Below, piece after piece: positions 1 to 13,426 of a stretch of 13,426 nucleotides of DNA. The notes under the pieces were generated by a model that searched no databases, was not told the origin of the DNA, and worked only from the letters and a program-made list of their open reading frames with translations. Within the stretch, counting starts at the first letter, position 1. Every line of letters begins with the position of its first letter. Both the position numbers and the translations under genes were made by a program. Source of the DNA: a virus (lineage: Duplodnaviria > Heunggongvirae > Uroviricota > Caudoviricetes); the IMG/VR virus record IMGVR_UViG_651053022_000002, positions 1 to 13,426 of that record. One strand, given 5' to 3'.

Positions 1-177
1 TTACTGTTGGCGCAGGGTACGGATACCCTCCCTGGCCTGTGCGATACAGGGCAACAGTGCTGCCGAATCTGTTTTATCCTCATCGTTGTCGAAGATAATT
101 CCCGATTCGCAGTCGATATTGTCCTGCAGCCACGTAATCAGAATATCCAGCGCTGTTTCCGTGGTTAATGATTTCAT
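1..177 (-). CDS. Small conserved protein (58 aa) downstream of the cbtA module; possibly DUF957/YpjJ-like
   Basis: ATG at 177..175 and TAA at 3..1, internal to the 181-aa ORF 1..546. Protein MKSLTTETALDILITWLQDNIDCESGIIFDNDEDKTDSAALLPCIAQAREGIRTLRQQ. Position matches the small gene that follows cbtA in CP4-type islands (from memory). No strong Shine-Dalgarno. Confidence 0.45.
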   Translation of the reverse strand: MKSLTTETALDILITWLQDNIDCESGIIFDNDEDKTDSAALLPCIAQAREGIRTLRQQ

Positions 178-193
178 GTTGTGAATTTCCGGA

Positions 194-682
194 TTACCAG
201 TCGAAAGTGGGTAAACCCGGCAGATATCCGGCACTGGCATCCAGATGAATGAGACTGACACCATAACACCGGATGAGTGTGACGACCAGACGACGGAACG
301 TTTTTGACAGCCCCAGGCGCTTAAGCCGCAGAACCGGGTATGACCACGTATCGGTACGTAACAGATAACCGGTACCGGTAAAATGAATCCATTCTGATTC
401 ACCGAAGTCACTGGTCTGGTGTGACAGCGAGTACAGCCAGGCGTTGTCCGTTTCCGTGATATGTGCGGTACTGCAGCGTATGCCGGTAAGGGCAACAAAT
501 GGTGGCGTGCAGTCTGCTGAGGTCCGGTCAGATTCATCAACAACACGAAGGGAGTAGCCGTTATCGCAGACCATGTTAATCAGTTCAGCGAGATTAACAC
601 CATCAATGTCAACGACAATGCGCCCCATGTTCAGCGCCTGCACGTTAACGCTGTCGGCTTCCAGCGTCAGGGCCAGTTTCAT
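194..682 (-). CDS. Hypothetical protein (162 aa), DUF5983-like partner downstream of cbtA
   Basis: ORF 194..682. GGAGG sits 7 nt upstream of the ATG at 682..680, inside the 3' end of cbtA, so the two genes overlap by 38 nt. Family name is recalled from annotation habit, not verified. Confidence 0.5.
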
Positions 683-1055
683 CGTTTCGCCTCCGGATGC
701 TTCCCAGGGTAATGTTATTTACCGTTCTGTAATTGTCGCGGATCATCAGGCCTGTTGCCCGGCGAGCCCGGAGGATATCGATGCTGTTTATTAACTGAGA
801 GTGGGTACAGGCGCTGAATCCCGGCAGGTCGGTACGTACCAGTGCGTATTTTTCCACGAGAAAGTTCACTGCATCACACAGTGAAATGCCTGCCTCAATA
901 TGCTGCTCAATCACACGTTCATCAGCGAACGGTGTGTCATTCAGCGTGAGGCCATAGTGCTGGTCCAGCAGTCGGGTGAGCAGTGTCTGCCAGATGGTGA
1001 CTGGAGACGGGCAGCACGATACCTCCCGTACATGCGTGTCGGGTAATGTTTTCAT
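645..1055 (-). CDS. cbtA: CbtA-family toxin of a type IV toxin-antitoxin system (YeeV/YkfI/YpjF-like), 136 aa
   Basis: Translation [103 protein letters not shown]... matches my recollection of E. coli YeeV across most of its length; the C-terminal tail is longer than the recalled ~124-aa form. Confidence 0.85.
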
Positions 1056-1144
1056 ACTGAAGATTTTCCTGATATGCAGAGATAAAAAATGGGACAGTGG
1101 CGTGGTGAAAACACCAGGCCGGAGCAGAAGGTTATTCTGGTGGT

Positions 1145-1513
1145 TTACTTTTTCGTTTCAGGTGTCGGATAAACAGCCAGATAAACGTAACCACAGGAGC
1201 CGAGGGTGTCGGCTTCACAGGTCAGCCCCTTCGCATACAGTGTCACGGTATGCTGATGGCGGGGATTCAGTTCACCACTGGTGAGCATTAATTTCAGTTG
1301 TTTCATCAGCAGCGGAAAGGCCTGGTCCAGAGGGTACGCATCCGCATCTCTGAACCGGCCTCTGATACCGGCACGGTCGGCAAGGTAATGCAACCGGTTA
1401 CCCTCCTGCACCAGACGGGCGCCGAAACAGGGCGTCACTGTGCAGGGTAGTCCCCACCAGGGATGGTCGTCATTGTCATCGGGATGCGTTGTCCCGGAAA
1501 GTGTGTCTGACAC
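1145..1513 (-). CDS. cbeA: CbeA-family antitoxin (YeeU/YfjZ-like), copy A, about 123 aa with a GTG start
   Basis: Core ...[35 protein letters not shown]...[12 protein letters not shown]...[43 protein letters not shown] is YeeU-like. GTG at 1513..1511 is preceded by GAGGA. The ORF-track extension to 1621 runs into an unrelated remnant. Sits 89 nt upstream of cbtA. Confidence 0.75.
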
Positions 1514-1562
1514 GATAAAATCCTCACAGAAAATCGGTGAATGATAGTTTAACGATGACGGG

Positions 1563-1665
1563 TCAGCCGGCGCGCAGACCGGCTTCGGTAAAGGTGTATT
1601 CGTTGATGAGCAGGACCTCATCCACAGCGGCGTCTGAGCTCTGCCAGTCGTACTCGTTTTCCGGG
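1563..1665 (-). pseudogene. 3' fragment of the 171-aa gene (duplicate of the 2479..2580 segment), not an independent gene
   Basis: ORF 1563..1772 ends ...[32 protein letters not shown], near-identical to the C-terminus of the 2479..2994 protein. Nucleotide similarity runs about 1561..1660 and then breaks. Confidence 0.5.
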
Positions 1666-1917
1666 TGACGGAACATCCAGCAGTCGGGTGAGCAGTGTCT
1701 GCCAGATGGTGACGGGAGACGGGCAGCGCGATGCCGCCCGTACGTGTATGCCTGCCTCAATATGCTGCTCAATCACACGTTCATCGGCAAACGGTGTGTC
1801 ATTCAGTGTGAGGCCATAGTGCTGGTCCAGCAGTCGGGACAGCAGTATCTGCCAGATTTCAACAGGAGACGGGCGAGAACTGGCCGCCTGCCCGGGTAAT
1901 ACAGGTAATGTTTTCAT
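1618..1917 (-). pseudogene. Chimeric cbtA remnant: 5' end of cbtA (about 57 codons) joined to a second partial copy of the cbtA 5' segment
   Basis: Translation begins [57 protein letters not shown] (cbtA N-terminus) and then re-enters ...[17 protein letters not shown]. The segment 1681..1746 is a near-copy of 970..1033. Confidence 0.6.
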
Positions 1918-2012
1918 ACTGAAGATTTTCCTGATATGCAGATATAAAAATGGAAAAGTGGCGTGGTGAAAACACCAGGCCGTAGCAGAAGGCTATTCTG
2001 GAGAGTTAATTT

Positions 2013-2190
2013 TTCATTTCGGGCGTCGGATAAACAGCCAGATAAACGTAATCACAGGAGCCCAGGGTATCGGCTTCGCAGGTCAGTCCTTTCGCATACA
2101 GTTCATTTCGGGCGTCGGATAAACAGCCAGATAAACGTAACCACAACTGCTGAGGGTATCGGCTTTGCAGGTCAGCCCTTTTGCATACAG
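2013..2190. repeat. Tandem direct repeat, 2 x 89 bp, diverged copies of the cbeA 3' end
   Basis: Copy 1 at 2013..2101 and copy 2 at 2102..2190 both start ttcatttcgggcgtcggataaacagccagataaacgtaa and end gcatacag; a third related copy lies at about 1160..1250 in cbeA copy A. Confidence 0.8.
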
Positions 2191-2463
2191 CGTGACGGTA
2201 TGCTGATGGCGGGGATTCAGTTCACCGCTGGTGAGCATGAGTTCCAGTTGTTTCATCAGCAGCGGAAAGGCCTGGTCCAGGTGGTACGCATCTGCATCGC
2301 TGAACAGGCCTCTGATACCGGCGCGGTCGGCAAGGTAATGCAACCGGTTACCCTCCTGCACCAGACGTGCCCCGAAACAGGGCGTCACGGTGCAGGGCAG
2401 TCCCCACCAGAGGCGGTCGTTATGGTCGTCGGGATAATTTGTCTCATGGAGTTTGTCTGACAC
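2083..2463 (-). CDS. cbeA: CbeA-family antitoxin, copy B (126 aa), with a C-terminus altered by the tandem repeat
   Basis: [99 protein letters not shown]... is YeeU-like. The protein ends ...PTPEMNCMRKD, whereas the adjacent repeat copy encodes the canonical-looking ...PTPEMKN stop. Confidence 0.75.
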   Translation of the reverse strand: MSDKLHETNYPDDHNDRLWWGLPCTVTPCFGARLVQEGNRLHYLADRAGIRGLFSDADAYHLDQAFPLLMKQLELMLTSGELNPRHQHTVTLYAKGLTCKADTLSSCGYVYLAVYPTPEMNCMRKD

Positions 2464-2478
2464 GATAAAGTCCTCAGG

Positions 2479-2994
2479 TCAGCCGGCGCGCAGACCGGCT
2501 TCGGTGAAGGTGTATTCGTTGATGAGAAGGGCCTCATCCACAGCGGCATCAGAGGTCAGCCTGTCGTACTCGTTTTCCAGCTGACGGTACAAGTCGCGCA
2601 GGGCTTCGCTGACAGCGGCTTCCGCATCGGCTGTCATAGCCTGACCAGTCGGACTGTTCCGGGTAACAGTGATATCCATGCTGTACGGATGGCAGTAACG
2701 TCCCCGGTGGTGGATTTCAGCCTGCAGTTGCCAGAAGTTACGTTTCTGCACCGCCTGCAGGGCATCCGCGATACGATGGAGTTCATGGTCCTGTGTGGCA
2801 TACTCCCGGAGCCTTCTGGCTGTTGCTGGCTGCCAGTGCCAGCGTCCTTCAAAACAGGCTCCGTCCCCCTGGCTGCAGAATCCGCTGAACCAGATGCACG
2901 CCTCTTCCATAAACCTGCCGTTGCTGAGCCGGAAAACGCGCTGGCGGAGGTCAATTCCGAAAATGCCACAGACCGCCCTGAAGTCCTCATACAC
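2479..2994 (-). CDS. Conserved hypothetical protein immediately upstream of cbeA (171 aa from a GTG); possibly disrupted at its 5' end
   Basis: ORF 2479..2994 begins at GTG 2994..2992; reading upstream in frame hits TGA at 3051..3049. An ATG-initiated ORF in another frame (ATGATG at about 3084, through a T7/A7 run at 3054..3060) covers the upstream sequence. Family not recognised. Confidence 0.45.
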   Translation of the reverse strand: MYEDFRAVCGIFGIDLRQRVFRLSNGRFMEEACIWFSGFCSQGDGACFEGRWHWQPATARRLREYATQDHELHRIADALQAVQKRNFWQLQAEIHHRGRYCHPYSMDITVTRNSPTGQAMTADAEAAVSEALRDLYRQLENEYDRLTSDAAVDEALLINEYTFTEAGLRAG

Positions 2995-3093
2995 GTTTTC
3001 ATACCAGTTGCTGTCAGCATGATGCTGACGGTACCAGTCGCGGGCTTTTCACGATAAAAAAACTTCGGCAATTTCATCATGATTTGAAACATT

Positions 3094-3117
3094 GGCACCC
3101 TGTTAGCAAGGGTGCCA
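3094..3117 (-). terminator. GC-rich hairpin (8-bp stem) at the par-module / TA-island junction; possible terminator after parR
   Basis: ggcaccct-gttagca-agggtgcc at 3094..3117, downstream of parR on the minus strand; the following U-tract is weak. Confidence 0.3.
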
Positions 3118-3165
3118 GAATGATGTGTTGGTCTGTATTTTATTAGTTCACATACAATTATCAGA

Positions 3166-3480
3166 TTATTCTGGGAATAAGGTCTGAATATTCTTTTTTA
3201 TTTTATAAAAATTGCATTCAACTCCGCTAGGCTGATTATCCTGGTATGTTTCCTTGATGCTAACGGTATTGAAGGGGAGGTTGTCCTCTGGCCATTCGGC
3301 CATCCAGTAGGCAAATGCTGGGTTGCGCTTTATGAGCGCTAGCCCAGCCAGAAAGGCCGCGCGTTGCGCGCGGCTGCGTTCGGAGGCTGGCAGGCTATCG
3401 AGGTAATTGCACGCCTCCTGTTCACTCTTGACGGCGGCGGGCTTCAGATAGAAACTTATCCGTCTGGTTGGTGTCGTCAT
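3166..3480 (-). CDS. parR: ParR-like centromere-binding protein of a type II (ParMR) partition system, 104 aa
   Basis: ATG at 3480..3478 lies 4 nt after the parM stop. MTTPTRRISFYLKPAAVKSEQEACNYLDSLPASERSRAQRAAFLAGLALIKRNP... resembles plasmid R1 ParR as I recall it (RRTIAFKL...LDSIPQGERSRLNRAALTAGLALY). The ORF-track extension to 3615 overlaps parM and is rejected. Confidence 0.75.
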   Translation of the reverse strand: MTTPTRRISFYLKPAAVKSEQEACNYLDSLPASERSRAQRAAFLAGLALIKRNPAFAYWMAEWPEDNLPFNTVSIKETYQDNQPSGVECNFYKIKKNIQTLFPE

Positions 3481-3484
3481 TGGT

Positions 3485-4444
3485 TTACTCCTTGTCCATT
3501 GCGTACAGCCCATTAACCAGAGCAAACTGTGGCACCCCGTCCGCGATGAAAGTCGCATTAACTCCGCAGACTTCGCGGATAGCGGGTGCCACAATCTCCG
3601 CCCCTCCACCGACAACCATCACCCGCCCGTAACCCGAAAAAACCGCCAGCGCGCGGATCACGCGTTGTTTCAGTGTTTCTTCCTTTTCACGAATAACCGC
3701 CATCAGGCTGGCGTAATGCGCGTCATTGTGGATGTGCTGGCGCAGCCAGGCTTCATCATGGCGATGTTCGATAATGGTATTGGCGATGTGGTGACTGGTG
3801 CGCATACCGTTAGTGGCCATCACCGACAGTACGGCATCGGCCATCAGGGAAACGCCTACGTGTGGATCGCAAAACACCTGGCTGATACCTGCCAGTTGCC
3901 CTTGAACCTTTGCCACATCCAGCGTGGTTCCGCCTAAATCCACAATCAGCAGGGATTCAAACGGACTCATGTCAGCCAGTGCTTTAAAGCCAGCCGGAAT
4001 GGATTCAGGCATAACCCGCACGTTACGGATAGTGAATGCTTCGCCGTTCTGGTATTCCACCGGGCGCATAACGTTCGCTTTTTTGCGGTTGATGTTGGCC
4101 ATGTCCGGCTGTGCGTTTGTGTCGAAATACTCGCTCAGTGGCAGGGTGACAACCACATCCACCTCCTGTGGCGTGATGCCTGATTTGACCAGCGCGTGAT
4201 GAATGGCGATTACATTCACATCGCTGTACTGGTATTGCGTGTCGGTCGTCTGGACAAAGCGATCGCTAACCGGATCAAAACCATAGCGCACGCCATCAAG
4301 CATGTAGTTCGCGGGCTGCATGCCACCGAACGGCGCAGACCATTCCGACTTGAAGCTGTTCGGGCTGATGGCGTTGCGGCGTTCGCCATTCTCAGTCCAT
4401 GCCAGCTTGATGTTGGTGGAGCCGTCGTCGATACAAATTTTCAT
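3485..4444 (-). CDS. parM: ParM/StbA-like actin-type plasmid segregation ATPase, 319 aa
   Basis: MKICIDDGSTNIKLAWTENG...ISPNSFKSEW...YSDVNVIAIHHAL...VVVTLPLSEY...LIVDLGGTTLDV... carries the actin-fold phosphate motifs (IDDGSTNIK, DLGGTTLD) and closely tracks my recollection of R1 ParM. AAGGAAAA Shine-Dalgarno precedes the ATG at 4444. Confidence 0.9.
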   Translation of the reverse strand: MKICIDDGSTNIKLAWTENGERRNAISPNSFKSEWSAPFGGMQPANYMLDGVRYGFDPVSDRFVQTTDTQYQYSDVNVIAIHHALVKSGITPQEVDVVVTLPLSEYFDTNAQPDMANINRKKANVMRPVEYQNGEAFTIRNVRVMPESIPAGFKALADMSPFESLLIVDLGGTTLDVAKVQGQLAGISQVFCDPHVGVSLMADAVLSVMATNGMRTSHHIANTIIEHRHDEAWLRQHIHNDAHYASLMAVIREKEETLKQRVIRALAVFSGYGRVMVVGGGAEIVAPAIREVCGVNATFIADGVPQFALVNGLYAMDKE

Positions 4445-4462
4445 GTCGCTTTTCCTTATGTT

Positions 4463-4590
4463 GATTAATTAATCGTTTACGGGATTCTGAAATCCCGTTT
4501 TTGCCTGTTTTGTGCGCGCTTCATATATCGCTGCGCGTTTTTTGCTCATTTACGGGATTCGTAAGTCCCGTTTCTGTCTGTTTTTTGTTT
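4463..4590. repeat. Centromere- or operator-like repeats: the AT palindrome gattaattaatc plus two copies (73-bp period) of a hairpin-containing unit
   Basis: gattaattaatc at 4463..4474. Unit A: acgggatt-ctga-aatcccgt at 4479..4498 followed by T-rich sequence. Unit B: acgggatt-cgta-agtcccgt at 4552..4571, same flanks (tttacgggattc...cccgttt...ctgtttt). Unit A is in the rep-parM intergenic region; unit B is inside the rep 3' coding end. Confidence 0.7.
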
Positions 4591-7343
4591 CCACTGGTCA
4601 GGCCACCCCGCAGCAGGTCTGCTTTGCGGCTGGCGCGTTCAGTGGTTTCACTGATTCTCTGTGCGTGCTCTGCGTCGCGGATGGCGCGCAGCATGTCAGA
4701 AAGCACGGTAACGGGTGTTTTCATGGTGTTCTGGCCCTGCTGAAGTGTGGATGCCAGGCGTGCGGCGGCTTCAGGGTCTGATGCCCCCAGCTGTGCCAGA
4801 TAGCTGGCGACCGGGTTATGGCGGATCTCCGTGCTGCTTACGCCATGATTACGGCTCAGGCGCTGCCAGAGCTGCGTGATTCGGCTGTCCGGGCGGGTAT
4901 CCGGTTTGCGTACAATTTCAAATCCCTGCGGTGCAATGATGCTGCCGTCAACGTACAGACTGCCGCCCCGTAACAGGTGCTGCATCTGTTGTTCACCGAT
5001 ATGCAGGCCGAGAGATTCAGCAGACTCCCGCCATTCTTTAGCGAGTAATTCGTGGTTATCAGGCAAAGGCCGCTGCTGTTTGCGGCTCTGTGTCCAGCTC
5101 TGCATTTCATCGCTGCTGTTTTTTGCCTGTTTGTCACGAAGCGAACGCATCAGCGCCCGGCGTTCGTGTCGTTTCAGTGAGCGCATCCATTCGTTCACTT
5201 CAACGCCGTCAGGGAGCTGCGGCCACGGTGCTGGCCGTTCTTCCGGCTGTTCTGTCCCGTTGTTGTCCGTTTCCTGTACACGGGGACAGTTATTGCCACG
5301 AGTCCAAGGGGCGGCAGGGCCGCCCTGAAGGTCAAAACCATTTTCGCGGGCGCTGTCTTCCGCTTCCGGTTTACGTCTTACCAGCTTCCAGTTATCCGGA
5401 TGCGTGCACACACGGGAGGATTCCCCGATGAGTGGTGACCAGATCCCGTAAATCTGTACGCTCTGTTCGCCGTAATCGTTCAGCTCATCTGCGAGGTCGT
5501 AGGCGGTGCGAATCAGGTAGTCCTTGCGTGGAACAAGCACGCCACCCTGTTTTTCAATGTAGGTGGCAAAACACCCGGCATCGGCGGCAGCGAGTACCGC
5601 ATCCATTGCATCATCTTTCAGCCGTTGCGGGCCTTCCGGATTGCGTGCCATCTGGCTGGCAAGGCGGCGCAGTTCACGCCACACCTGACGGGAGGGGATG
5701 CCAAAGAACTGGAACTGACGGACCCGGTGAAGGCGCGCCCAGCCGATGGCGCGCTCCACGCTCTCGGCCATTGATTTTCCGGTTTCGTGGTCCACGCGTG
5801 GCTTGCCCGTTTTCGGGTCGATGCCATCCACGGCGCGGCTGTCCAGGTTCTTTCCGATGTAGGTGGCGATGTAGCTGGTTGGCGTGCCTTTTGAGCCGTC
5901 GACATACTCCACCTTAAAGCGCGGAGTAATATCATTGCCCAGCTCGTGGCGGTCTTCCTGAATGGCAATATCGCGGGTATGGGACACAATGGTGTCGATT
6001 TCTTCCGGATGTGCAAAGACCATCATATGCCAGTGCACGGTGCCGTCATGATGAGGCTCCACCGTGCGGATGCCATACCAGCGCAGGCCGTCGCGGTTCA
6101 GTTTTTTGCGGACCGCCGCAAAAAACGTGTTAACCAGGTAATCGCTGGAGTCGCGCATTGTGGCCCCGTTCCATTTGGGATTCGGATGACCGTTCTCCGT
6201 TGTGGCGTGGTATTTTGACGGGCAGGTGACAGTCAGAAACACCGCTTTGTCGCCACGGGCTTCGGCCAGAAGTTCCAGTCCCTTCATGGTGGCCATCATT
6301 TCTGCCTTACGGTGAACCGGGTTACTTACTCCCGCGTAATACACTGTCTCGAGATCAATCGTGAACCCGTCTTCATTTTCCAGCATGAAACTTTTCAGGA
6401 AATCGCGTGTTTTCTCGCGCTGTGCGCGAAACTCGCTTAACGCGTCCTGGCTCAGATAGGGTGATGTTTTTCTGGAAACCAGACAGGCGGCGCGGAGTTG
6501 TTCTTCTCTCCACTCGCAACGTAACAGCCACAGTTTGCGTTTCCACCATTCCGCACAGGTCAGGCGAAGGATTGCGCCCGGCAGCAGCTCCGTGTCCGGT
6601 TCGTTCCTCCGGTCTTTGTCTGTTGTCAGTGCGTCATAATGTGGAGGCATGGCGTGCAGGTGTAACGCCATGCGGGCCAGCATCTGATACGCCTTCAGGG
6701 TTACATCCATGGTCAGCTCGCCATCGGTCGCGCCAAAGCCATCGCAGAGTTTTTCGAAGGTGCTGCTGAACATCGCCGCCGTCATGGTGGCCAGCGTCTG
6801 TATCTGGTGTTTGTTGAGCTGCGGCAGGTAAAGCAAATCGTCCAGGCGTTCGCGTCCGGCAAGGGAGCGATAACCCGGTGTCAGCCAGCGTCCGTCAGTG
6901 CTATCCAGACGTTCGAATATTTTGCGCAGGGTTCCGCGTGCATAGCGTTCCGCCTGCCAGCTCTTTTTGCCTTTCCGGCGATCGGCTTCCTGTTTTTTGC
7001 GCAGGAAGGAGAGGTGGCGAATAAGCGGATCGCGCAGATAGGACGGCAGCAGGCGCAGCGAGGCCATGGCTTCATCCACCGCGCCACGTGCCTGTTTTCT
7101 GGCGTCTCCTGCCAGTGTGATGGTTTTGTCCTGTTTTTCCTGTGCGTCCAGGCTTTTATTAATCAGGTTGCCCAGCGGCGTGGCTGAGAACGCCGCATCA
7201 GCCATTTCCTGGCGGCGCTCGTTCTCTGCCCGGTAGGCATCCAGCCAGGAGGAAAGCGCGGATTCAGGAGCGGGGATCCCCGTTCCTTCACGCCCCACTG
7301 CGTGGCGCGGTTGTTGCCAGTCCCTGAGGTACTCTGCCGTCAT
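4521..7343 (-). CDS. Rolling-circle replication initiator (HUH endonuclease, phage P2 gpA / phiX174 gpA superfamily), 940 aa
   Basis: Contains the HUH metal-binding motif (TVHWHMMVF) and, about 50 residues later, the paired-tyrosine motif SYIATYIGKNLD (YxxxY) typical of superfamily-I rolling-circle Reps. No Walker A motif was seen, so it is not a P4 alpha-type primase-helicase. Confidence 0.85.
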   Translation of the reverse strand: MTAEYLRDWQQPRHAVGREGTGIPAPESALSSWLDAYRAENERRQEMADAAFSATPLGNLINKSLDAQEKQDKTITLAGDARKQARGAVDEAMASLRLLPSYLRDPLIRHLSFLRKKQEADRRKGKKSWQAERYARGTLRKIFERLDSTDGRWLTPGYRSLAGRERLDDLLYLPQLNKHQIQTLATMTAAMFSSTFEKLCDGFGATDGELTMDVTLKAYQMLARMALHLHAMPPHYDALTTDKDRRNEPDTELLPGAILRLTCAEWWKRKLWLLRCEWREEQLRAACLVSRKTSPYLSQDALSEFRAQREKTRDFLKSFMLENEDGFTIDLETVYYAGVSNPVHRKAEMMATMKGLELLAEARGDKAVFLTVTCPSKYHATTENGHPNPKWNGATMRDSSDYLVNTFFAAVRKKLNRDGLRWYGIRTVEPHHDGTVHWHMMVFAHPEEIDTIVSHTRDIAIQEDRHELGNDITPRFKVEYVDGSKGTPTSYIATYIGKNLDSRAVDGIDPKTGKPRVDHETGKSMAESVERAIGWARLHRVRQFQFFGIPSRQVWRELRRLASQMARNPEGPQRLKDDAMDAVLAAADAGCFATYIEKQGGVLVPRKDYLIRTAYDLADELNDYGEQSVQIYGIWSPLIGESSRVCTHPDNWKLVRRKPEAEDSARENGFDLQGGPAAPWTRGNNCPRVQETDNNGTEQPEERPAPWPQLPDGVEVNEWMRSLKRHERRALMRSLRDKQAKNSSDEMQSWTQSRKQQRPLPDNHELLAKEWRESAESLGLHIGEQQMQHLLRGGSLYVDGSIIAPQGFEIVRKPDTRPDSRITQLWQRLSRNHGVSSTEIRHNPVASYLAQLGASDPEAAARLASTLQQGQNTMKTPVTVLSDMLRAIRDAEHAQRISETTERASRKADLLRGGLTSGNKKQTETGLTNPVNEQKTRSDI

Positions 7344-7349
7344 AGTGAT

Positions 7350-7715
7350 TTACTTCGTCATGCCATTCAGGGTGTCGCGGCAGACTGTAGCCAGCCGCTG
7401 AATTTCCAGCACGGTGTCTTCTGTGTCGGCATGGCGATGTGTGATGCGGATGCTGTCGGCAATCACATCGACGATTGCAGAGGATGGGCGCTGGTAAATG
7501 CCAATAACGGACGGGGTGCCACCTTCAATGCGGTAAAGCCTGTAATTTCCCTCGTGGCTGTCAATCATGTAGCGACCATCAATAACAATCTTTCCGTCAG
7601 CGAGCTGCGGTACAGGCAGGGATTTCAGGTACATGTCATAACGATCACGCACGCGAGCGGCAAGATCACGTTCTGTATTGAGCAGGTATTCAAGAAAGTC
7701 GTTGGCGAGAATCAT
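7350..7715 (-). CDS. Hypothetical protein (121 aa) immediately upstream of rep
   Basis: ORF 7350..7715 with AAGAGGA 7 nt before the ATG; its stop lies 6 nt before the rep start, suggesting co-transcription. Confidence 0.6.
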   Translation of the reverse strand: MILANDFLEYLLNTERDLAARVRDRYDMYLKSLPVPQLADGKIVIDGRYMIDSHEGNYRLYRIEGGTPSVIGIYQRPSSAIVDVIADSIRITHRHADTEDTVLEIQRLATVCRDTLNGMTK

Positions 7716-7787
7716 TGCGGCAATCCTCTTGTTACAGATGTGCGAAGGCCTCCCGCCGCAAGGTGCAGGAAAGGCCCGGAACAGGAA

Positions 7788-8018
7788 TTAATGGAGTTTG
7801 TTTTGCTGCTGGATGAGCTGTTGAAGCTCGTGCAGATCATCCGCCAGATAGCTGAAAACAGAGGCGGAATAAATGTTTGATAGTGCGTGGCTGCGCTCAT
7901 GCAGCATATTGATGTGCATGATTTGCGCGACGCGTGATGCGCGGGAAAGTCTGCGGTTGATTTCAGTCTGGATGTGACGACGCTCCGCGATAGCGCGGTG
8001 CTGTTTGCGGTTTGCCAT
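7788..8018 (-). CDS. Small basic protein (76 aa), possible DNA-binding regulator
   Basis: ORF 7788..8018, MANRKQHRAIAERRHIQTEINRRLSRASRVAQ..., Arg/Lys-rich N-terminus; AAGGGG Shine-Dalgarno upstream. Confidence 0.5.
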   Translation of the reverse strand: MANRKQHRAIAERRHIQTEINRRLSRASRVAQIMHINMLHERSHALSNIYSASVFSYLADDLHELQQLIQQQNKLH

Positions 8019-8196
8019 GGTGTGGCCCCTTGTGTAGTAAGTTGTGAAAACTCACCATCCAGAGCTGCGAAACTGTGGGTGGCGAGACGTACGAGGTTCG
8101 CAGTACCGGCTACACAAGAACCCGGCCCGACCGAAGTCGGCCCCGTACGCCCCGCCATAATTCTGACGCGAAAAAAACGTGGCAATACAGTACGCA

Positions 8197-8218
8197 CAAA
8201 AAAACCGCTGGCGCGGTT
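8197..8218 (-). terminator. Candidate intrinsic terminator on the minus strand inside the early operon
   Basis: Minus strand reads aaccgc-gcca-gcggtt followed by TTTTTTT (plus coordinates 8203..8218 stem-loop, 8197..8202 T-tract), about 120 nt after the 8341..8640 gene. Confidence 0.5.
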
Positions 8219-8340
8219 GTGCGCTTGTGTAGTCAGCAGGCTGCGAAACCCGGCACCCGTTTTATGAGGTGCAGCGGAAATGTAACCTGACTGATTGCGG
8301 CATGGCAAGCGGTTTTTTTGTGTGTGCATGCTCTGGTTTC

Positions 8341-8640
8341 TTACTGGTTCAGAAAAAAATCAAAAACCTTGTCAATACGTTGCAGCAGCTCTTGCTGTAT
8401 TGCTTCCGGCGTTTCCGGTTCGCCTGGCACCTCCAATGTCGCGCAGAAATCAGCGATTTCATGATGGAGCGTCAGGCGAATGGCAGGAGCCGTGGTTCTG
8501 GCGTGCTCCAGCTCATCCAGCAATGCCAGCGCAGCAGACGGCGAGAGCATTGCGCGAAATGCCAGTAATTTTTGAGGTGTTGCCATTCGTTGCAGGGCAA
8601 ATGCCAGTTCGCGTAGCTTCTGGTGGTTGATGGTGCTCAT
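8341..8640 (-). CDS. Hypothetical protein (99 aa)
   Basis: ORF 8341..8640 with GAAGGAAG Shine-Dalgarno; its start overlaps the upstream gene's stop by 4 nt. Confidence 0.6.
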   Translation of the reverse strand: MSTINHQKLRELAFALQRMATPQKLLAFRAMLSPSAALALLDELEHARTTAPAIRLTLHHEIADFCATLEVPGEPETPEAIQQELLQRIDKVFDFFLNQ

Positions 8641-8903
8641 GTTCTGGCTTCCTTCAGTAGCTGGTTAAACATGTGAGTAAGTGGATTGCTACACCCGAAC
8701 GGCATCGGGTTTACGTGGTAAGAAGCCTGGCCTCCAGTTTTGCGAGCGCGACCACCTGTGCTGCGGTTTGTTCTGATGACTAAGCCGCCGCGCCAAAGTT
8801 GGCGTAACTCAGCATTAATGGCTGTGGTTGGAGTATTCAGTGCTGCGGCGATCTCTCCGCCGCTACACCCCGGATGAGTAGCGATGTAGTCCAGAATGGT
8901 CAT
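8637..8903 (-). CDS. Hypothetical protein (88 aa), possible winged-helix DNA-binding protein
   Basis: ORF 8637..8903, AGGAG 6 nt before the ATG; MTILDYIATHPGCSGGEIAAALNTPTTAINAELRQLWRGGLVIR is an HTH-like segment; 4-nt overlap with the neighbouring gene. Confidence 0.6.
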   Translation of the reverse strand: MTILDYIATHPGCSGGEIAAALNTPTTAINAELRQLWRGGLVIRTNRSTGGRARKTGGQASYHVNPMPFGCSNPLTHMFNQLLKEART

Positions 8904-9103
8904 CTGCGTGGCTCCTGTACCTGTCGGATAAGGTTTACCCGCGCCACATTAGTGGCGCAGAAGTAAGTGCCGTCAGTGAGGTAGATGTGGTGTGCATCCT
9001 TTTCCGAACGATGTTTGTCGATAGTGGTAATCAGGCGTTCGTCGACCTCGTATTCGCGCCCTCTGGAGGTAAAGCGAACGACGGGAAAATGCTTAATTGC
9101 CAT
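8900..9103 (-). CDS. Hypothetical protein (67 aa)
   Basis: ORF 8900..9103 with AAGGGGG Shine-Dalgarno. Confidence 0.55.
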   Translation of the reverse strand: MAIKHFPVVRFTSRGREYEVDERLITTIDKHRSEKDAHHIYLTDGTYFCATNVARVNLIRQVQEPRR

Positions 9104-9126
9104 TGCGCCCCCTTTGTCCAGTAACT

Positions 9127-9537
9127 CTATGCGTTAAATACGGTGCACTGTGCGTCATCAATGAATGCGACTTGAGAGCGCTCTATCAGGCGGAGATTTG
9201 TCAGAATTTCTGATTCCCTTATGGGGTGAGGAGTGATCAGGTATTTATCCTGTAACCCGGCGATAATGGTGTATCGCTGTAGCTCCGAGCCAATTGTGTA
9301 AATAAGGCGTCCGGTGTTAGACAAATCCAGTCCGGTGACTGGTTGTGTTCTGAGAACCGCCAGTTCAGCATCCTGTTTTGCGATAATTTCGGCTGCTTCT
9401 GCCGTGACTCTTGCGACTATCAGTGTGTGGGTTGCGACGTCCATATGATTATTTGCTATGGCTTTTTTCGCTACTTCGTTTTCTGTCTTTGAAATTTCTT
9501 TCAGTGCTCTGATGATACCTTCTTCTTTTGCGTGCAT
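9127..9537 (-). CDS. Hypothetical protein (136 aa)
   Basis: ORF 9127..9537 with GGAGA 7 nt before the ATG; lower G+C than the rep region. Confidence 0.6.
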   Translation of the reverse strand: MHAKEEGIIRALKEISKTENEVAKKAIANNHMDVATHTLIVARVTAEAAEIIAKQDAELAVLRTQPVTGLDLSNTGRLIYTIGSELQRYTIIAGLQDKYLITPHPIRESEILTNLRLIERSQVAFIDDAQCTVFNA

Positions 9538-9630
9538 TTTTGTATCTCCGTTATTTGCGTGTGCGAATACCTCCGTTAATACGGATGGTTTTCACGTTTT
9601 CTTATTTAATTTGATGTTTTATTTGTATCG

Positions 9631-9744
9631 TTATTCACCAGTGAAAAAACGTTCAATCTTTTTTACTGAATGAATAATTCGCACAATGCCAATTGCGCAG
9701 ACCACTGAAATAATCAGAACAATCCATGACATAAATATACTCAT
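9631..9744 (-). CDS. Unlisted small hydrophobic peptide (37 aa), probably a single transmembrane helix
   Basis: My own translation: MSIFMSWIVLIISVVCAIGIVRIIHSVKKIERFFTGE. The ATG at 9744..9742 overlaps the upstream stop at 9743..9741 (ATGA coupling); GGGGA lies 7 nt upstream. Too short for the supplied ORF track. Confidence 0.4.
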   Translation of the reverse strand: MSIFMSWIVLIISVVCAIGIVRIIHSVKKIERFFTGE

Positions 9745-9983
9745 GCGATATTCCCCAGCTTATACGGTTCAATATGTTCCCCGCATTCTGCGGCACAGAT
9801 CAGCTCGGAAAGTTCGTTAAGTGCATCCAGATCATCAGCGTAAAAAGCCACGTCATACAGACTCCGGATTGCCCTGGTCAATGAGTCACGGGCTGCACGT
9901 TCAGCATGAGCGCCTGATGCACTTAAGCGAAAATAAAAACGCTCAAGTGCTTTGTTAATGAGAGTTTTATATTCTTTGCCCAT
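9741..9983 (-). CDS. Hypothetical protein (80 aa from the internal ATG)
   Basis: ORF 9741..10034 trimmed to the ATG at 9983..9981 (MGKEYKTLINKALERFYFRL...), which avoids overlap with the upstream gene. Confidence 0.5.
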   Translation of the reverse strand: MGKEYKTLINKALERFYFRLSASGAHAERAARDSLTRAIRSLYDVAFYADDLDALNELSELICAAECGEHIEPYKLGNIA

Positions 9984-9994
9984 CGCAACGCCCT

Positions 9995-10273
9995 TTAATC
10001 TGCTTTCTGAATTTCTGCTTCTGAATCCATACAAATAATTTCGATATAGGGTTCATCGCCATTAGTCTTACGTGCTTTTTCCGCTTCGCTAATGATTTCG
10101 TGTACAGTCTGGTACGGAAGTTCTACGGTCAGGCGCGTGCCGTTCAGATAAACGTAAGTAGCTGCATTTTTTTCGGATGGAACAACTCCGTCAATGGCTG
10201 ATGCGCGTAATAACAGTTCACCGCGAAAATCAATAAAACGGATAAATACACCTTGTGCATGCTCTTTGGTCAT
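9995..10273 (-). CDS. Hypothetical protein (92 aa from the internal ATG)
   Basis: ORF 9995..10333 trimmed to the ATG at 10273..10271 (MTKEHAQGVFIRFIDF...), with AGGTG upstream and a 10-nt gap to the preceding gene. Confidence 0.5.
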   Translation of the reverse strand: MTKEHAQGVFIRFIDFRGELLLRASAIDGVVPSEKNAATYVYLNGTRLTVELPYQTVHEIISEAEKARKTNGDEPYIEIICMDSEAEIQKAD

Positions 10274-10283
10274 AAAGCACCTG

Positions 10284-10634
10284 TTATAAATCAGCCTGTT
10301 TAATAAAACTTTGCCCGTGAAGCAGACGATCAACCGTGCGAAGTGCTTCGTATAATGTGAAATCCTGCCCGAACTGATTGTCGCCGTTGCTCAGTGCAAA
10401 AATGCGGTTTCCGGTAAATGGGTTGCGCTGGCATCTGTGAACCACGATTCCTGCTTTTTCAATCAGCCAAGTGTGTTCACCAATTTGTTTTACTGGGTAG
10501 CCATCCGGCGTTGCGTGTGTTTCGCTCAGGCTGTAGCGAGAGTTGCTACGTGATGCACTGGTAGCGAAACGGTTAGCATGGCGTTCCGCACCGTTGCGGA
10601 AGCGCTGCTGTGAAGAATTGCGCTGTAGTTTCAT
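10284..10634 (-). CDS. Hypothetical protein (116 aa), first gene of the leftward early operon
   Basis: ORF 10284..10634; the ATG at 10634 sits just downstream of a palindrome-containing promoter region. Confidence 0.55.
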   Translation of the reverse strand: MKLQRNSSQQRFRNGAERHANRFATSASRSNSRYSLSETHATPDGYPVKQIGEHTWLIEKAGIVVHRCQRNPFTGNRIFALSNGDNQFGQDFTLYEALRTVDRLLHGQSFIKQADL

Positions 10635-10645
10635 ATTAAAACTCT

Positions 10646-10737
10646 GTACCTTCGGTAAGGTGTACTCGTGTCACCTTGTATTGATTTGTGGTATTTTTTT
10701 TGTGTGTCTAGGACTTGGACTGGCCGGTTCAGGTCCT
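10646..10737. promoter_or_regulatory. Divergent regulatory region with two inverted repeats
   Basis: accttCGGTaaggt at 10648..10661 (5-bp arms); imperfect inverted repeat aggacttggac / gttcaggtcct at 10710..10737 (9 of 11 positions complementary, 6-bp spacer). Lies between the minus-strand early operon and the plus-strand 63-aa ORF. Confidence 0.35.
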
Positions 10738-10771
10738 GGCTTATGTTTAATTAAATTGTTAAGAGGTTTTC

Positions 10772-10963
10772 ATGTCAGAAGATAAAAAAGTTGTTAATTT
10801 GTTGAGTGAACTTAGTGCTGCTCTGGATAACATTAACCCTCCCAGGGTAAAAACGACGGGTGATAAAGACGCATTAAACACAGAGATTCATATATTACTG
10901 GCGTTAGTAACTGACAAAATTCAGCGTAAATACCCACCTGTCACACAACTGGTTGATTTTTAA
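10772..10963 (+). CDS. Small hypothetical protein (63 aa), AT-rich, the only plus-strand gene in the interior
   Basis: ORF 10772..10963, MSEDKKVVNLLSELSAALDNINPPRVKTTGDKDALNTEIHILLALVTDKIQRKYPPVTQLVDF, with AAGAGG 6 nt before the ATG; convergent with the 141-aa gene. Confidence 0.5.
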   Translation: MSEDKKVVNLLSELSAALDNINPPRVKTTGDKDALNTEIHILLALVTDKIQRKYPPVTQLVDF

Positions 10964-10969
10964 TTTGAT

Positions 10970-11392
10970 TTATGCCGGGCTGCTCCCGGCATCTTCTACC
11001 TGCCATAATGTCTCGTCACCTGATAGAGCAAAACGAAATGAGTGAAGTATATCCCCCCGAGAGAAGCTCACGGCTACAGCTGCGGGAAAGTCAAATATAA
11101 TCCCACCTTCATTTTTAAAACGATTACGCAATTGATAGGCTATCGGTTTGATTTGTGCAGGAAGAGTATCTATATCTCTTCCATTGACAACAGAATCTTT
11201 GTTTTCAAGTACTGATTTAGCGATTAGATATAGATGCCAGTAACTGGTTACAATTGTTACTCCTGTGATGTGTCGTAAATTAATTGCAATTCGTCCGTTA
11301 TTATGTTTTTCCGCAAGGTATTTCAGGTTATCAATTAATGCTTGGTCATTTTTTGAAATAGTTATTGTGAAATCTGACGTGTTTGTTTTCAT
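10970..11392 (-). CDS. Hypothetical protein (141 aa) in an AT-rich segment; candidate cargo (moron) gene
   Basis: ORF 10970..11635 trimmed to the ATG at 11392..11390, 4 nt after the upstream stop. Protein MKTNTSDFTITISKNDQALIDNLKYLAEKHNNGRIAINLRHITGVTIVTSYWHLYLIAKSVLENKDSVVNGRDIDTLPAQIKPIAYQLRNRFKNEGGIIFDFPAAVAVSFSRGDILHSFRFALSGDETLWQVEDAGSSPA. I counted 23/60 G+C in line 11101..11160 versus 41/60 in rep line 5701..5760. Confidence 0.6.
   Translation of the reverse strand: MKTNTSDFTITISKNDQALIDNLKYLAEKHNNGRIAINLRHITGVTIVTSYWHLYLIAKSVLENKDSVVNGRDIDTLPAQIKPIAYQLRNRFKNEGGIIFDFPAAVAVSFSRGDILHSFRFALSGDETLWQVEDAGSSPA
10972..10992 (+). terminator. Hairpin (8-bp stem) just after the 63-aa ORF; possible terminator overlapping the 3' end of the convergent 141-aa gene
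   Basis: atgccggg-ctgct-cccggcat at 10972..10992, 9 nt after the TAA at 10961..10963; the following tract (cttct) is only weakly U-rich. Confidence 0.3.
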
Positions 11393-11396
11393 ACGA

Positions 11397-11918
11397 TTAG
11401 TTGCCTCTGTTGTTTCTGAGTTGGTCCAGTTTTGAGCTTCTGCCTGTATAAACTCGCTTACCGTTAATGGTCTGGCAGTCTTCTTTATTAGCTGGAGAGA
11501 ACTTCCTTTTCTGGCGGTCATACGTCCAGTAACTTTTCCAGTTGTGCCATTCTGGGGGCTCGTGCTCTGGTAGCTCATCAGCCAACTTGTCCCACTCTTT
11601 GGCGTTAAACCACCATACTCCGTCTGAGTTTTCATCTTCCGGGTTTGTGCGCGTCTTGTGTCCCGGCATTTGACCGCGATGAATGGCTACGCGCAGTGCA
11701 GATTTTGTTAGCCCAATATATGCCGCGCCTTTTTCCAGAGAGCAAAGCCCGGCGATCGGACCATCCAGCCGCAAAGTCGCTCCTTTTTTGTAGGAACGCT
11801 TTTTCTTGTTTTCTTCGTGCTCGTCGTCGTTGGCGGCATCAATGGATCCGCTGAGTGCGTCACTTTCCTGAAGTGGTTGGTGGTCAGATAACTCTTTATC
11901 GGCAATGAAGTCCCGCAT
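11397..11918 (-). CDS. Excisionase/Cox-like HTH protein (173 aa) with an acidic N-terminus, divergent from the repressor
   Basis: ORF 11397..11918 with AAGAGGA before the ATG. The segment GAAYIGLTKSALRVAIHRGQMPGHK...GVWWFNAKEWDKL looks like an Xis/AlpA/MerR-type HTH with wing; its position mirrors cox/apl in P2/186-type switches. Confidence 0.6.
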   Translation of the reverse strand: MRDFIADKELSDHQPLQESDALSGSIDAANDDEHEENKKKRSYKKGATLRLDGPIAGLCSLEKGAAYIGLTKSALRVAIHRGQMPGHKTRTNPEDENSDGVWWFNAKEWDKLADELPEHEPPEWHNWKSYWTYDRQKRKFSPANKEDCQTINGKRVYTGRSSKLDQLRNNRGN

Positions 11919-11977
11919 TTGTTATCCTCTTGCGTTGGTGCGCTTGTCGCGCCTTGTGATGGTTTGTTTTGGCTTGT

Positions 11978-12001
11978 AAAGATAACCAAAAGGTTATCTT
12001 T
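11978..12001. promoter_or_regulatory. Perfect palindromic operator (10-bp arms, 4-bp spacer) in the divergent promoter region
   Basis: aaagataacc-aaaa-ggttatcttt at 11978..12001; a further half-site ggttatctt at 12025..12033 overlaps the regulator start codon. Confidence 0.6.
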
Positions 12002-12022
12002 GTGCGAGAGGTTAATACTCAA

Positions 12023-12364
12023 ATGGTTATCTTGTCAATAGACTACGCAAAAAAGTTACGTCAGATACGTAAGGCGGAAGGGTTAACACAAAAGCAGTTT
12101 GCGGATATTACTGGGTTGTCTTTGGCAACCATAAGGAATTACGAATCGGGGCAAAAGAACGCTAGAGCAAAAATCGTTGAGGCGGTTCTGCAAGTCGATC
12201 GCTTTGAAAAATACATGCTGTGGCTAATAAAAGATAAGACGCTACCTGTCGCCGGGCAGATTGCTCCGGCTCTCTCTCTTGATGGATCTATTCAGTCGGA
12301 GGGCGATCAGGTTTCAATCGGTATTACCCAAAAATCACCCCGATCAGGCCGCAATGTTGGCTGA
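12023..12364 (+). CDS. XRE-family helix-turn-helix transcriptional regulator (immunity repressor-like), 113 aa
   Basis: The segment LRQIRKAEGLTQKQFADITGLSLATIRNYESGQK is a canonical XRE/Cro-C1 HTH. First in-frame ATG at 12023 (the ORF track begins at a TTG at 11969). Same orientation as int, divergent from the Cox-like gene. Confidence 0.75.
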   Translation: MVILSIDYAKKLRQIRKAEGLTQKQFADITGLSLATIRNYESGQKNARAKIVEAVLQVDRFEKYMLWLIKDKTLPVAGQIAPALSLDGSIQSEGDQVSIGITQKSPRSGRNVG

Positions 12365-12433
12365 CTCTACACATTGAGCGAATTACATATCGCAAGGAGT
12401 GTTTAGTTAATTTATCCGTTGGAGGGGCTAATC

Positions 12434-13426
12434 ATGTCGATTAAGCAACTCAAAGACGGACGTTATCAGGTCGATGTCAGACCGCAGGGGGCGGAAGGAA
12501 AGCGGATTCGAAAAATCTTTGCCCTGAAATCAAAGGCTCAGGAGTTTGAGAAGTATGTGTTACAGAACTTTCATGACAAGCCATGGCAGGCTAAGCCAGC
12601 TGATCAGCGGCGATTATCAGAGCTGCTTGATGCGTGGTGGATGCTTGATGGGCGTAATCAGGCTTACGGGGATAGCTACAGGGTTAGGCTAGGGAAGGTT
12701 GTTCGTGAAATGGGAGATCCTCGCGCCAGTCAGATGACGCGAAAATTTATGCTTGAATATCGGTCAGAGAAATTACAGGCCGGATTAATGCCGTCCAGTA
12801 TTAATCGTGACTTATGCGTACTGTCTACCATGTTCACGGTGCTGATTGAAGCTGAGGTCTTTCACAACGCGAACCCTGTACGCGGTATACGAAAACTGAA
12901 AGTTCAGAACACAGAGATGGCCTTTCTTTCTGATGATGAGATTGAACGGCTTCTTGAGCGACTGGAGGGTGATGTGCGTCGTGTTGCCATTCTGTGTCTT
13001 TCTACTGGTGCCCGATGGAGTGAAGCATCGGAACTACGTGGAGAGCATATCGTTGGCAACCGGGTGACGTTCTTTAACACCAAAAACGGAAAATCCCGTT
13101 CGGTTCCTGTGGCGGATTCGGTCGTGCCTCTGATTAAAACCCGTCGAACGGGGTTATTGTATCAGGTTGATTATCTGAAGTTCCGGGAGATTCTTCAGGA
13201 GGTGAAACCGGATTTGCCGAAGGGGCAGGCTACGCATGTCATGCGTCATACATTTGCCACACACTTTATGATGAATGGCGGAAATATTGTTACGTTGCAA
13301 CGAATCCTGGGGCACGCAACGATTCAGCAAACAATGACGTACGCTCATTTTTCGCCGGACTTTTTACTGGACGCGATCAACTTTAATCCGCTGGCTGAAA
13401 GTGTCCATAAACTGTCCATCGATTAG
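12434..13426 (+). CDS. int: Tyrosine site-specific integrase, 330 aa
   Basis: GGAGGGG lies 7 nt before the ATG at 12434. N-terminal arm-binding-like region (MSIKQLKDGRYQVDVRPQGAEGKRIRKIF...), catalytic signatures (ARWSEASELR; HVMRHTFATHF; LGHATIQQTMTYAHF). The stop codon is the last three bases of the window. Confidence 0.9.
   Translation: MSIKQLKDGRYQVDVRPQGAEGKRIRKIFALKSKAQEFEKYVLQNFHDKPWQAKPADQRRLSELLDAWWMLDGRNQAYGDSYRVRLGKVVREMGDPRASQMTRKFMLEYRSEKLQAGLMPSSINRDLCVLSTMFTVLIEAEVFHNANPVRGIRKLKVQNTEMAFLSDDEIERLLERLEGDVRRVAILCLSTGARWSEASELRGEHIVGNRVTFFNTKNGKSRSVPVADSVVPLIKTRRTGLLYQVDYLKFREILQEVKPDLPKGQATHVMRHTFATHFMMNGGNIVTLQRILGHATIQQTMTYAHFSPDFLLDAINFNPLAESVHKLSID

Follow-up and report, generated by a model that had tools for sequence, protein, structure and literature searches.

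What do the short genes between the immunity switch and the replication gene of a P2-like element encode, and what governs their use? The question is raised by a 13,426-nt stretch of Caudoviricetes DNA (positions 1–13,426 of IMG/VR record IMGVR_UViG_651053022_000002, hereafter "the window"), whose interval 7350–10634 had been assigned, in a preliminary description made from the sequence alone, to the early operon of a P2-like element between its immunity switch and rep. This placement was confirmed: the interval lies between the C/cox switch and the gpA gene, and all of its genes are on the minus strand, transcribed from right to left in window coordinates (Table 1). The operon has two parts, namely a promoter-proximal part (10634–8341) encoding eight genus-specific small proteins, and a distal, self-contained control cassette made up, in order, of a promoter-like site, an IsrK-like leader with its terminator, a C4 RNA, an epsilon-like gene, a DUF5405-like gene, and gene A. 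We propose, with a probability of roughly 0.7, that the distal part is an RNA-gated anti-repressor cassette of the P4-CI/P1-c4 kind, residing in the early operon of a P88-like phage and possibly also gating A.

Two RNAs and their paired targets

The 322-nt gap at 8019–8340, which had been passed over as a spacer, contains two RNAs with significant Rfam matches and a strong intrinsic terminator, all on the coding strand. The IsrK-like leader (65.2 bits against a gathering threshold of 50, E = 2e-13) forms two hairpins, lies just upstream of the C4 RNA, and ends in the terminator, placed by a terminator scan at a stem (8203–8218) followed by a run of seven T residues. The C4 RNA (83.2 bits against a gathering threshold of 45, E = 1e-16) has a minimum free energy of −47.7 kcal/mol, a tRNA-like scaffold, and a 3′ CCACC. 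The two Rfam families have previously been equated with P4 elements, isrK with seqA and C4 with CI (PMC3632133, PMC10111431). A putative promoter just upstream of the leader is the positional equivalent of P4 P_LE, and sequence conservation among relatives starts about 10 nt upstream of its −35-like element, including where the DNA further upstream is a different insert (P88, L013, Salmonella s1).

Two recognition elements of the C4 RNA, a′ (8110–8120, UUCUUGUGUAG) and b′ (8097–8103, CUGCGAA), each have complementary sites on both sides. Upstream, within the leader, these are b1 (8241–8247, UUCGCAG) and a1 (8224–8232, CUACACAAG); downstream, where they correspond to seqC of P4 and a2–b2 of P1, they are b2 (8065–8071, UUCGCAG) and a2 (8027–8037, CUACACAAGGG). 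The pairing amounts to 9 bp for a′–a1, 11 bp for a′–a2, and 7 bp for both b′–b1 and b′–b2, and the a′–a2 duplex covers the Shine-Dalgarno sequence (AAGGGG) of the epsilon-like gene, whose ATG is at 8018. The a′/b′ type of the window is written UUGUGUAG/CUGCGAA, and that of P88 UGUAGUUG/GUGGAAA.

When 12 P88-like prophages from Escherichia coli, E. albertii, Salmonella, and Citrobacter were aligned, changes in the loops were seen to go along with changes in both target pairs. In the upstream interaction 100% of alignment cells were paired, with both-sided changes in 10 of 16 pairs, and in the downstream interaction 99% were paired, with both-sided changes in 9 of 18. The covariation scores of 0.66 (upstream) and 0.60 (downstream) compare with 0.13 and 0.14 in shuffles; neither these scores nor the proportion of paired cells were reached in any of 500 shuffles, and controls with slid partners gave at most 0.14. 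The C4 scaffold itself (27 pairs) was 99.7% paired in the same 12 relatives, three pairs having changed on both sides. An independent pattern scan of IMG/VR, small in sample, provided at least 29 C4 loci in an epsilon and gpA context and at least 25 P4-like loci. The 29 listed epsilon–gpA loci represent 20 different a′/b′ combinations, and cognate b′ targets were found downstream in all 29 and upstream in 28, along with cognate a′ targets in 23 and 22 of the 29, compared to 1–8% for non-cognate loops used as a control. In all eight P2-like loci examined, the epsilon ATG lies exactly 108 nt past the C4 core, including four distant loci whose gpA is only ~31–33% identical to that of the window. 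These comparisons indicate that the arrangement is old and under selection. The cassette occurs in an all-or-none manner: both RNAs and epsilon are jointly present in the window, P88, Shae_phiSM, and P88_4B11, and jointly absent from phages 520873, 503458, Chuche, P2, and 186. Separately, two C4-type RNAs of different loop specificity, several hundred bases to 8 kb apart, occur in loci L039 (IMG/VR 2554235145_000016), L119, L023, L032, and L045, and in L039 only one of the two precedes epsilon–gpA.

These same data bear on a coding interpretation of the gap, in which a 205-aa open reading frame (ORF; 7712–8329, minus strand) would be the gene and the RNA matches incidental. This ORF is open in the window and scores exactly at the cutoff of Pfam family Phage_ASH (26.0 bits). 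It is an annotated gene in P88_4B11 and in a number of RefSeq genomes, and certain records name it "ash family protein" or "transcriptional regulator". However, the entire epsilon gene lies within it in a different frame, relatives have 1-nt indels inside it, and the variation is concentrated in the RNA loops, where each change is compensated at two distant sites, a pattern that coding constraint does not explain. A further Phage_ASH match (59.7 bits) is the now obsolete "cI protein" ORF of P4, which covers the region of the CI RNA. We therefore regard the coding interpretation as very improbable, and, because both ORFs match it, the Phage_ASH family appears to have been built on translations of an RNA locus.

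The epsilon-like protein and the proposed gate

The 76-aa product downstream of the C4 RNA belongs to the Pfam Derepression family (32.7 bits, cutoff 27), of which P4 epsilon is a full-length member (170 bits). Direct comparison with P4 epsilon by BLASTP gave 29% identity over 66 aa (E = 4e-9), 19 invariant columns are common to P4 epsilon and the alignment of relatives, and these relatives are named "derepression protein" by NCBI. An epsilon profile search of genome contigs yielded six loci, and word-indexed protein searches close relatives only, so that the protein alignments on which the models are based are shallow. P4 epsilon binds the P2 C repressor and is itself without DNA-binding activity (PMC2995052). 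The earlier suggestion that two of the ORFs are DNA-binding thus holds for the MarR-type protein, which is of the winged-helix kind (MarR_2, 29.1 bits), and not for the epsilon homolog, which by homology is no DNA binder.

A candidate target is encoded in cis, as the window C is a P2 C-type repressor with 37% identity to P2 C. P2 C mutants at T67 and I70 lose P4 E binding (PMC2995052), and these two positions are flanked by invariant residues (F58, K60, Y61, W64, G75, Q76, P79, L81, and G85). From this sequence comparison, the window C repressor is a plausible target of the epsilon-like protein.

Downstream, gpA has no Shine-Dalgarno sequence (−1.5 kcal/mol) and its ATG lies 6 nt past the stop of the DUF5405-like ORF, so that its translation is probably coupled to that ORF; in the phage 186 record, A is noted as apparently requiring that orf84 be translated to its end. 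The epsilon mRNA, with a C content of 0.32 and a G content of 0.19, is the most skewed of the operon. The 72-nt spacer that separates the epsilon-like and DUF5405-like genes (7716–7787) includes a GC-rich inverted repeat (GGCCTTTCC...GGGAGGCC) without a T-run, which was not called by the terminator scan.

By analogy with the P4 and P1 systems, the C4 RNA would derive either from transcription at the internal promoter-like site or from early transcripts that are then processed. In a lysogen, or once enough C4 RNA had accumulated, it would pair with the downstream sites and block epsilon translation. Given the C-rich, G-poor composition of the epsilon mRNA and the probable translational coupling of A further downstream, leaving this mRNA untranslated could cause premature termination and lower the expression of A, as CI does for P4 alpha. 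With the gate open, the epsilon-like protein would bind the phage's P2-type C repressor, leading to lytic growth, and might also bind the C repressors of other P2-like prophages. Specificity would reside in the RNA loops and not in epsilon, as in P1/P7, giving rise to many hetero-immune RNA types.

Several observations weigh against this interpretation. Promoter activity, RNase P processing, the translational block, and Rho polarity are all argued by analogy. Similarity to P4 epsilon is modest (29%), and Thr67 of P2 C is a lysine in the window C. Epsilon is 96–99% identical among the window, P88, and P88_4B11, and 100% identical between Shae_phiSM and E1535, while the corresponding C repressors are only 32–48% and 40% identical, respectively; covariation of epsilon with the C repressor of its own phage was looked for and not found. 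No LexA box that might connect the cassette with the reported induction of P88 by mitomycin C (PMC5285337) was found near the operon, and matches across the window were at chance level. The cassette is not essential, as some P88-like phages are without it, and the proposal offers no mechanism for eight of the ten proteins of the interval. Given that epsilon is near-invariant while C diverges, either epsilon recognizes a conserved C surface or its target lies elsewhere.

The latter observations would also be expected if epsilon were a broad-range trans-acting factor, and the cassette could be aimed at other elements, with epsilon derepressing heterologous P2-like prophages already resident or the C4 RNA of the resident phage silencing incoming P4-like satellites or rival phages that share its targets. 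An anti-satellite role has been raised for lambdoid IsrK–C4 systems (PMC3632133), P4 deploys the homologous cassette in inter-element conflict, and single b′ elements are common to P2-like, P4-like, and other classes. Yet no complete a′ plus b′ combination was common to the 29 P2-like and 25 P4-like loci listed, and the phage's own epsilon gene has its ribosome-binding site covered by the downstream target at a fixed spacing, which makes self-regulation certainly part of the design. We consider a cassette directed at other elements unlikely, and retain the RNA-gated anti-repressor of the phage's own immunity as the favored interpretation.

The promoter-proximal genes and their prophage

The interval contains nine ORFs of 67–136 aa and one membrane ORF of 37 aa, so that the small same-strand ORFs first described are real but numbered one too few, with the 37-aa ORF overlooked. 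Each begins with an ATG preceded by a plausible Shine-Dalgarno sequence (anti-Shine-Dalgarno duplexes of −3.8 to −10.7 kcal/mol), in agreement with the initial assessment. The reported tight packing is true of part of the block, where neighbors overlap by 4 nt (ATGA) in three places and lie 10, 11, or 23 nt apart in three others; elsewhere, gaps of 93, 322, and 72 nt break it up. Contrary to the statement that none belongs to a known family, every ORF falls into a catalogued one: all have PHROG matches (E = 1e-38 to 1e-75) to families that recur in phages, and the families represented are DUF4761, DUF4754, a MarR-type winged helix, the Derepression family of P4 epsilon, a probable distant DUF5405, and five PHROGs of unknown function. 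The ORFs are conserved among related phages at 55–100% amino acid identity, and seven are core genes across seven related phages. Most products are nevertheless without a demonstrated function, as had been anticipated, and the set does not resolve into well-characterized phage early proteins.

Table 1. Features of the window, listed in the direction of early transcription
Feature	Coordinates	Strand	Remark
C repressor	12023–12364	+	immunity switch
cox, 173 aa	11397–11918	−	immunity switch
140-aa ORF	10970–11392	−	cox-proximal
DUF4761, 116 aa	10284–10634	−	
phrog_3800, 92 aa	9995–10273	−	
DUF4754, 80 aa	9741–9983	−	
membrane ORF, 37 aa	9631–9744	−	
phrog_9338, 136 aa	9127–9537	−	
phrog_3459, 67 aa	8900–9103	−	
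MarR-type winged helix-turn-helix, 88 aa	8637–8903	−	
phrog_4144, 99 aa	8341–8640	−	
promoter-like site	8279–8308	−	TTGCCA-N18-TACATT
IsrK-like leader RNA	8198–8272	−	Rfam RF01394
C4/CI-type antisense RNA	8075–8162	−	Rfam RF01695
downstream target sites a2/b2	8027–8071	−	complementarity, covariation
epsilon-like protein, 76 aa	7788–8018	−	Pfam PF25738
DUF5405-like protein, 121 aa	7350–7715	−	distant family match
gpA rolling-circle replication initiator, 940 aa	4521–7343	−	Phage_GPA, 437 bits
ParM/StbA, 319 aa	3485–4444	−	side observation
Plasmid_stab_B protein	3166–3480	−	side observation

In order of transcription, the DUF4761 protein is a core gene product of the P88 group with ~40 basic, disordered N-terminal residues and a C-terminal domain of five strands plus a helix. 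The AlphaFold models of this protein and of the 121-aa DUF5405-like protein (predicted local distance difference test scores of 71 and 68, respectively) had no informative neighbor in the PDB. For the phrog_3800 gene, the true start is the ATG at 10273 rather than the TTG at 10333, because the phrog_3800 match (E = 1.7e-57) spans residues 21–112 of the longer ORF, RefSeq calls a 279-nt gene, and an AGGTG Shine-Dalgarno sequence is present; its product had no Pfam match even at E ≤ 1. The helical DUF4754 protein (Pfam, 181 bits) is 99–100% identical in P88, Shae_phiSM, P88_4B11, and Chuche. A possible resemblance of this protein to the C-terminus of P2 B, based on a weak BLAST match (E = 0.005 in a 23-sequence database), was not substantiated. 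The 37-aa ORF overlaps the DUF4754 gene at an ATGA, its start on the other's stop, is a RefSeq coding sequence in JJ1887, and is annotated as "membrane protein" in P88; it is found in all seven phages at 56–100% identity and, from the hydrophobic core read from its sequence, is predicted to be a single-pass membrane protein.

Beyond a 93-nt AT-rich spacer, the phrog_9338 gene (E = 1.9e-75) is accessory, and since, of the phages compared, Shae_phiSM alone shares it with this prophage, its position is a variable slot; the protein matched no Pfam or PADLOC model. It is followed by the phrog_3459 gene, a core gene at 81–97% identity in six related phages, and by the MarR-type gene, which overlaps both neighbors by an ATGA. 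The latter's product matches MarR_2 over residues 2–53 (profile positions 9–61; cutoff 27 bits), as well as HTH_24 and phrog_1687 ("MarR family", E = 7e-32). It represents a single winged helix-turn-helix (HTH), and at only 88 aa, compared to ~140 aa for the MarR fold, it cannot hold all of the dimerization helices. The last gene of this part belongs to phrog_4144 (E = 2.8e-61), and its product resembles the N-terminal region of Ead_Ea22 at 20.7 bits over 30 residues, below the family cutoff of 27. Immediately ahead of the RNA cassette is a second variable slot, which is empty in the window and contains an SPFH protein in P88 and a 184-aa multi-HTH protein in Shae_phiSM, E1535, and CM2.

The 121-aa protein encoded immediately upstream of A appears to be a distant member of DUF5405. 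It scores below the Pfam cutoff (13.9 bits against 21.6), but 8 of 11 relatives match the family (best E = 8.7e-6), and the top Foldseek match of its model in BFVD is a DUF5405 protein (E = 1.6e-3, probability 1.0). P2 Orf81 and Orf83 are both DUF5405 proteins, and 186 gp31 is of the same family; an hhalign comparison with Orf83 gave E = 0.0024 over 76 columns with a probability of only 12%, and BLASTP against Orf81 a weak match (E = 0.004). The protein has an extra N-terminal helical region. P4 orf151 and orf106, considered as its counterparts, showed no similarity, and neither has a counterpart in the window.

The preliminary description had suggested that such genes commonly encode host-takeover, anti-defense, or helper-manipulation factors, and a number of features fit an operon devoted mainly to these functions. 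Eight of the ten products are without a functional homolog, only the DUF5405-like protein resembles P2 or 186 early proteins, one gene is accessory and the second slot of relatives harbors varied cargo, and the proximal half is AT-rich (GC 0.38–0.47 vs 0.52–0.59 in the distal half). Among the ORFs, PADLOC defense models gave no match at E ≤ 0.01 other than a CARF winged-helix fragment in the MarR-like protein (E = 0.007), and the phrase "helper manipulation" came close only by accident and for a single gene. An NCBIfam scan returned nothing beyond weak HTH matches, and Pfam searches at E ≤ 1 with the unassigned ORFs and their most divergent relatives returned nothing. BLASTP against all P2, 186, and P4 early proteins was significant for epsilon only, and no homologs of P2 orf78, B, orf80, and orf82 or of 186 cII, fil, and dhr were detectable in the operon. 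A literature search on Xuanwuvirus, P88, DUF4761, and DUF4754 found no functional work on this operon. Outside of the cassette the operon is ordinary, with nothing that marks the small proteins as unusual, and a mainly host- or defense-directed role seems doubtful to us as its principal explanation.

Positions 3050–13426 of the window are 99.99% identical over 10.4 kb to a prophage of E. coli JJ1887 (sequence type 131, ST131), inserted adjoining dmsA, that also bears P2-type capsid, scaffold, terminase, and portal genes. The gene order int, C, cox, small ORFs, gpA, and parM, together with P2-type structural genes, is that of P88-like phages. The 3.3-kb interval is 100% identical in phages vB_EcoM-569R5/705R2 and is found in P88, P88_4B11, and Citrobacter phage Shae_phiSM, all assigned to genus Xuanwuvirus of the Peduoviridae, at 86–100% coverage and 91–93% identity. 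Of 5426 complete E. coli genomes, 1554 (29%) contain a match to it, which in 978 extends over 80% or more of the interval; ST131 and O157 lineages are among those with a match. The interval is thus the early (Pe) operon of a common, intact P88-like (Xuanwuvirus, P2-family) prophage and neither a satellite nor a rare element.

Additional features were noted in the surrounding DNA. A 335-nt break (10635–10969) between the cox-proximal genes and DUF4761 includes, in an AT-rich stretch (GC ~0.39–0.44), a plus-strand ORF of 63 aa (10772–10963) with no family match, listed as hypothetical in RefSeq. Neither this ORF, the 173-aa cox, nor the 140-aa ORF has a close counterpart in the other six phages compared, the only cox match among these being in P88 at 29% identity, and the region looks like a swapped immunity or moron segment. 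Directly 3′ of gpA, a plasmid-type partition pair occupies 3166–4444 on the minus strand; it is kept in P88, Shae_phiSM, and other Xuanwuvirus phages, and hints at an extrachromosomal (plasmid-prophage) phase reminiscent of the P4 plasmid mode. Positions 1–3049 are unrelated to the prophage, the identity to JJ1887 beginning abruptly at 3050. This left 3 kb contains CbtA/CbeA-type toxin–antitoxin genes with an internal duplication at ~83–87% identity (886–1241 vs 1748–2102 and 1152–1675 vs 2102–2591). The 3049/3050 junction was absent from all complete E. coli genomes, which leaves two explanations for the window: an assembly that was rearranged or chimeric, or an unusual replacement of cargo downstream of parM.

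Known systems and implications

The closest known system is that of P4 (P_LE, seqA, cI RNA, seqC, eta/kil, epsilon, orf151, cnr, alpha), which has the same order of promoter, leader with terminator, C4 RNA, target over a ribosome-binding site, epsilon-family gene, and replication gene. P4 displays the same isrK and C4 Rfam matches at seqA and the CI RNA (74.9 bits for the latter), followed by epsilon, and its promoter (TTGCCT-N17-TATAGT) is at the same place. Unlike that of P4, the window cassette is embedded in the early operon of a helper-class phage that is complete and of P2 type; no eta/kil ORF separates its downstream target from epsilon, whose start this target covers; and its replication gene is gpA, a rolling-circle nickase, where that of P4 is the alpha primase-helicase. 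Its RNA specificity also differs from that of all P4-like loci sampled.

The immI locus of P1/P7 (c4 RNA, icd, ant) and the anti-immunity locus of N15 contain RNAs of the same Rfam family. In these phages, as Citron and Schuster are said to have described in 1990 and Ravin in 1999, a processed antisense RNA reportedly uses its a′/b′ elements to pair with repeated upstream and downstream targets, thereby blocking translation ahead of the anti-repressor, and the RNA loops reportedly carry the specificity that defines hetero-immune types. Unlike in P1/P7, the anti-repressor of the window is an unrelated, small protein of the epsilon type, there is no icd-like leader ORF, and the cassette precedes the replication initiator within the main early operon instead of occupying an immunity locus of its own. 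The isrK–orf45–anrP locus of Salmonella Gifsy-1 has the same Rfam isrK match as the window. There, the anti-repressor gene, whose translation is RNA-controlled, follows an IsrK RNA that has a leaky intrinsic terminator (PMC4825925). The short Gifsy-1 IsrK acts positively in trans on anrP translation, whereas the window has a C4 partner with a predicted negative effect, and the anti-repressor family differs as well. Many Stx and lambdoid phages also have an isrK–C4 cassette, ~70% identical, that coincides with or adjoins an Ant/Rha anti-repressor gene.

The early operons of P2 and 186 follow the same general plan as that of the window. Their switch genes are divergent, small ORFs follow in a string, terminators lie within the operon, the gene abutting A belongs to DUF5405 (in the window, probably so), and A appears to be coupled to the ORF before it. 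The 186 anti-repressor Tum is LexA-controlled and encoded after A, whereas that of the window precedes A, is predicted to be RNA-controlled, and has no LexA box. IsrK–C4 systems have been described for P4-like satellites, P1, P7, N15, and some lambdoid prophages (PMC3632133), and our literature search found no paper describing an IsrK–C4 cassette or an epsilon homolog in P2-like phages.

These results have consequences for annotation. The exact C4 loop type of the window is present in 401 of 5426 complete E. coli genomes, and, given that RefSeq has no feature under this RNA at any of 30 sampled matches, it is systematically unannotated. Some records instead call the spurious 205-aa "Ash" or "regulator" ORF over the C4 RNA. 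A detector and census of P4 satellites used Phage_ASH (PF10554) as an "epsilon" marker (PMC8628076), and P88-like prophages may give confusing matches in detection based on this family.

A survey of P4-like satellites reported delta as the only P4-specific gene with clear homologs in P2 phages (PMC8628076), and the cassette adds epsilon and the CI RNA to these. Tentatively, a wide clade of P2-like, helper-class phages may carry a CI-RNA/epsilon module ahead of the replication initiator as a second, RNA-encoded immunity layer of dozens of specificities, gating both anti-repression and replication, with the P4 module exchanged with, and perhaps derived from, such helpers. The promoter-proximal proteins form a defined and conserved set for functional screens. 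Under this tentative reading of a second immunity layer, epsilon would also explain the induction of prophages with non-cleavable P2-type repressors such as P88, and would permit cross-induction among co-resident P2-like prophages. The cassette provides a testable route to the origin of P4 immunity and to the induction mechanism of prophages with P2 C-type repressors, and because this prophage is very common, the control of its induction bears on prophage activity in major pathogens.

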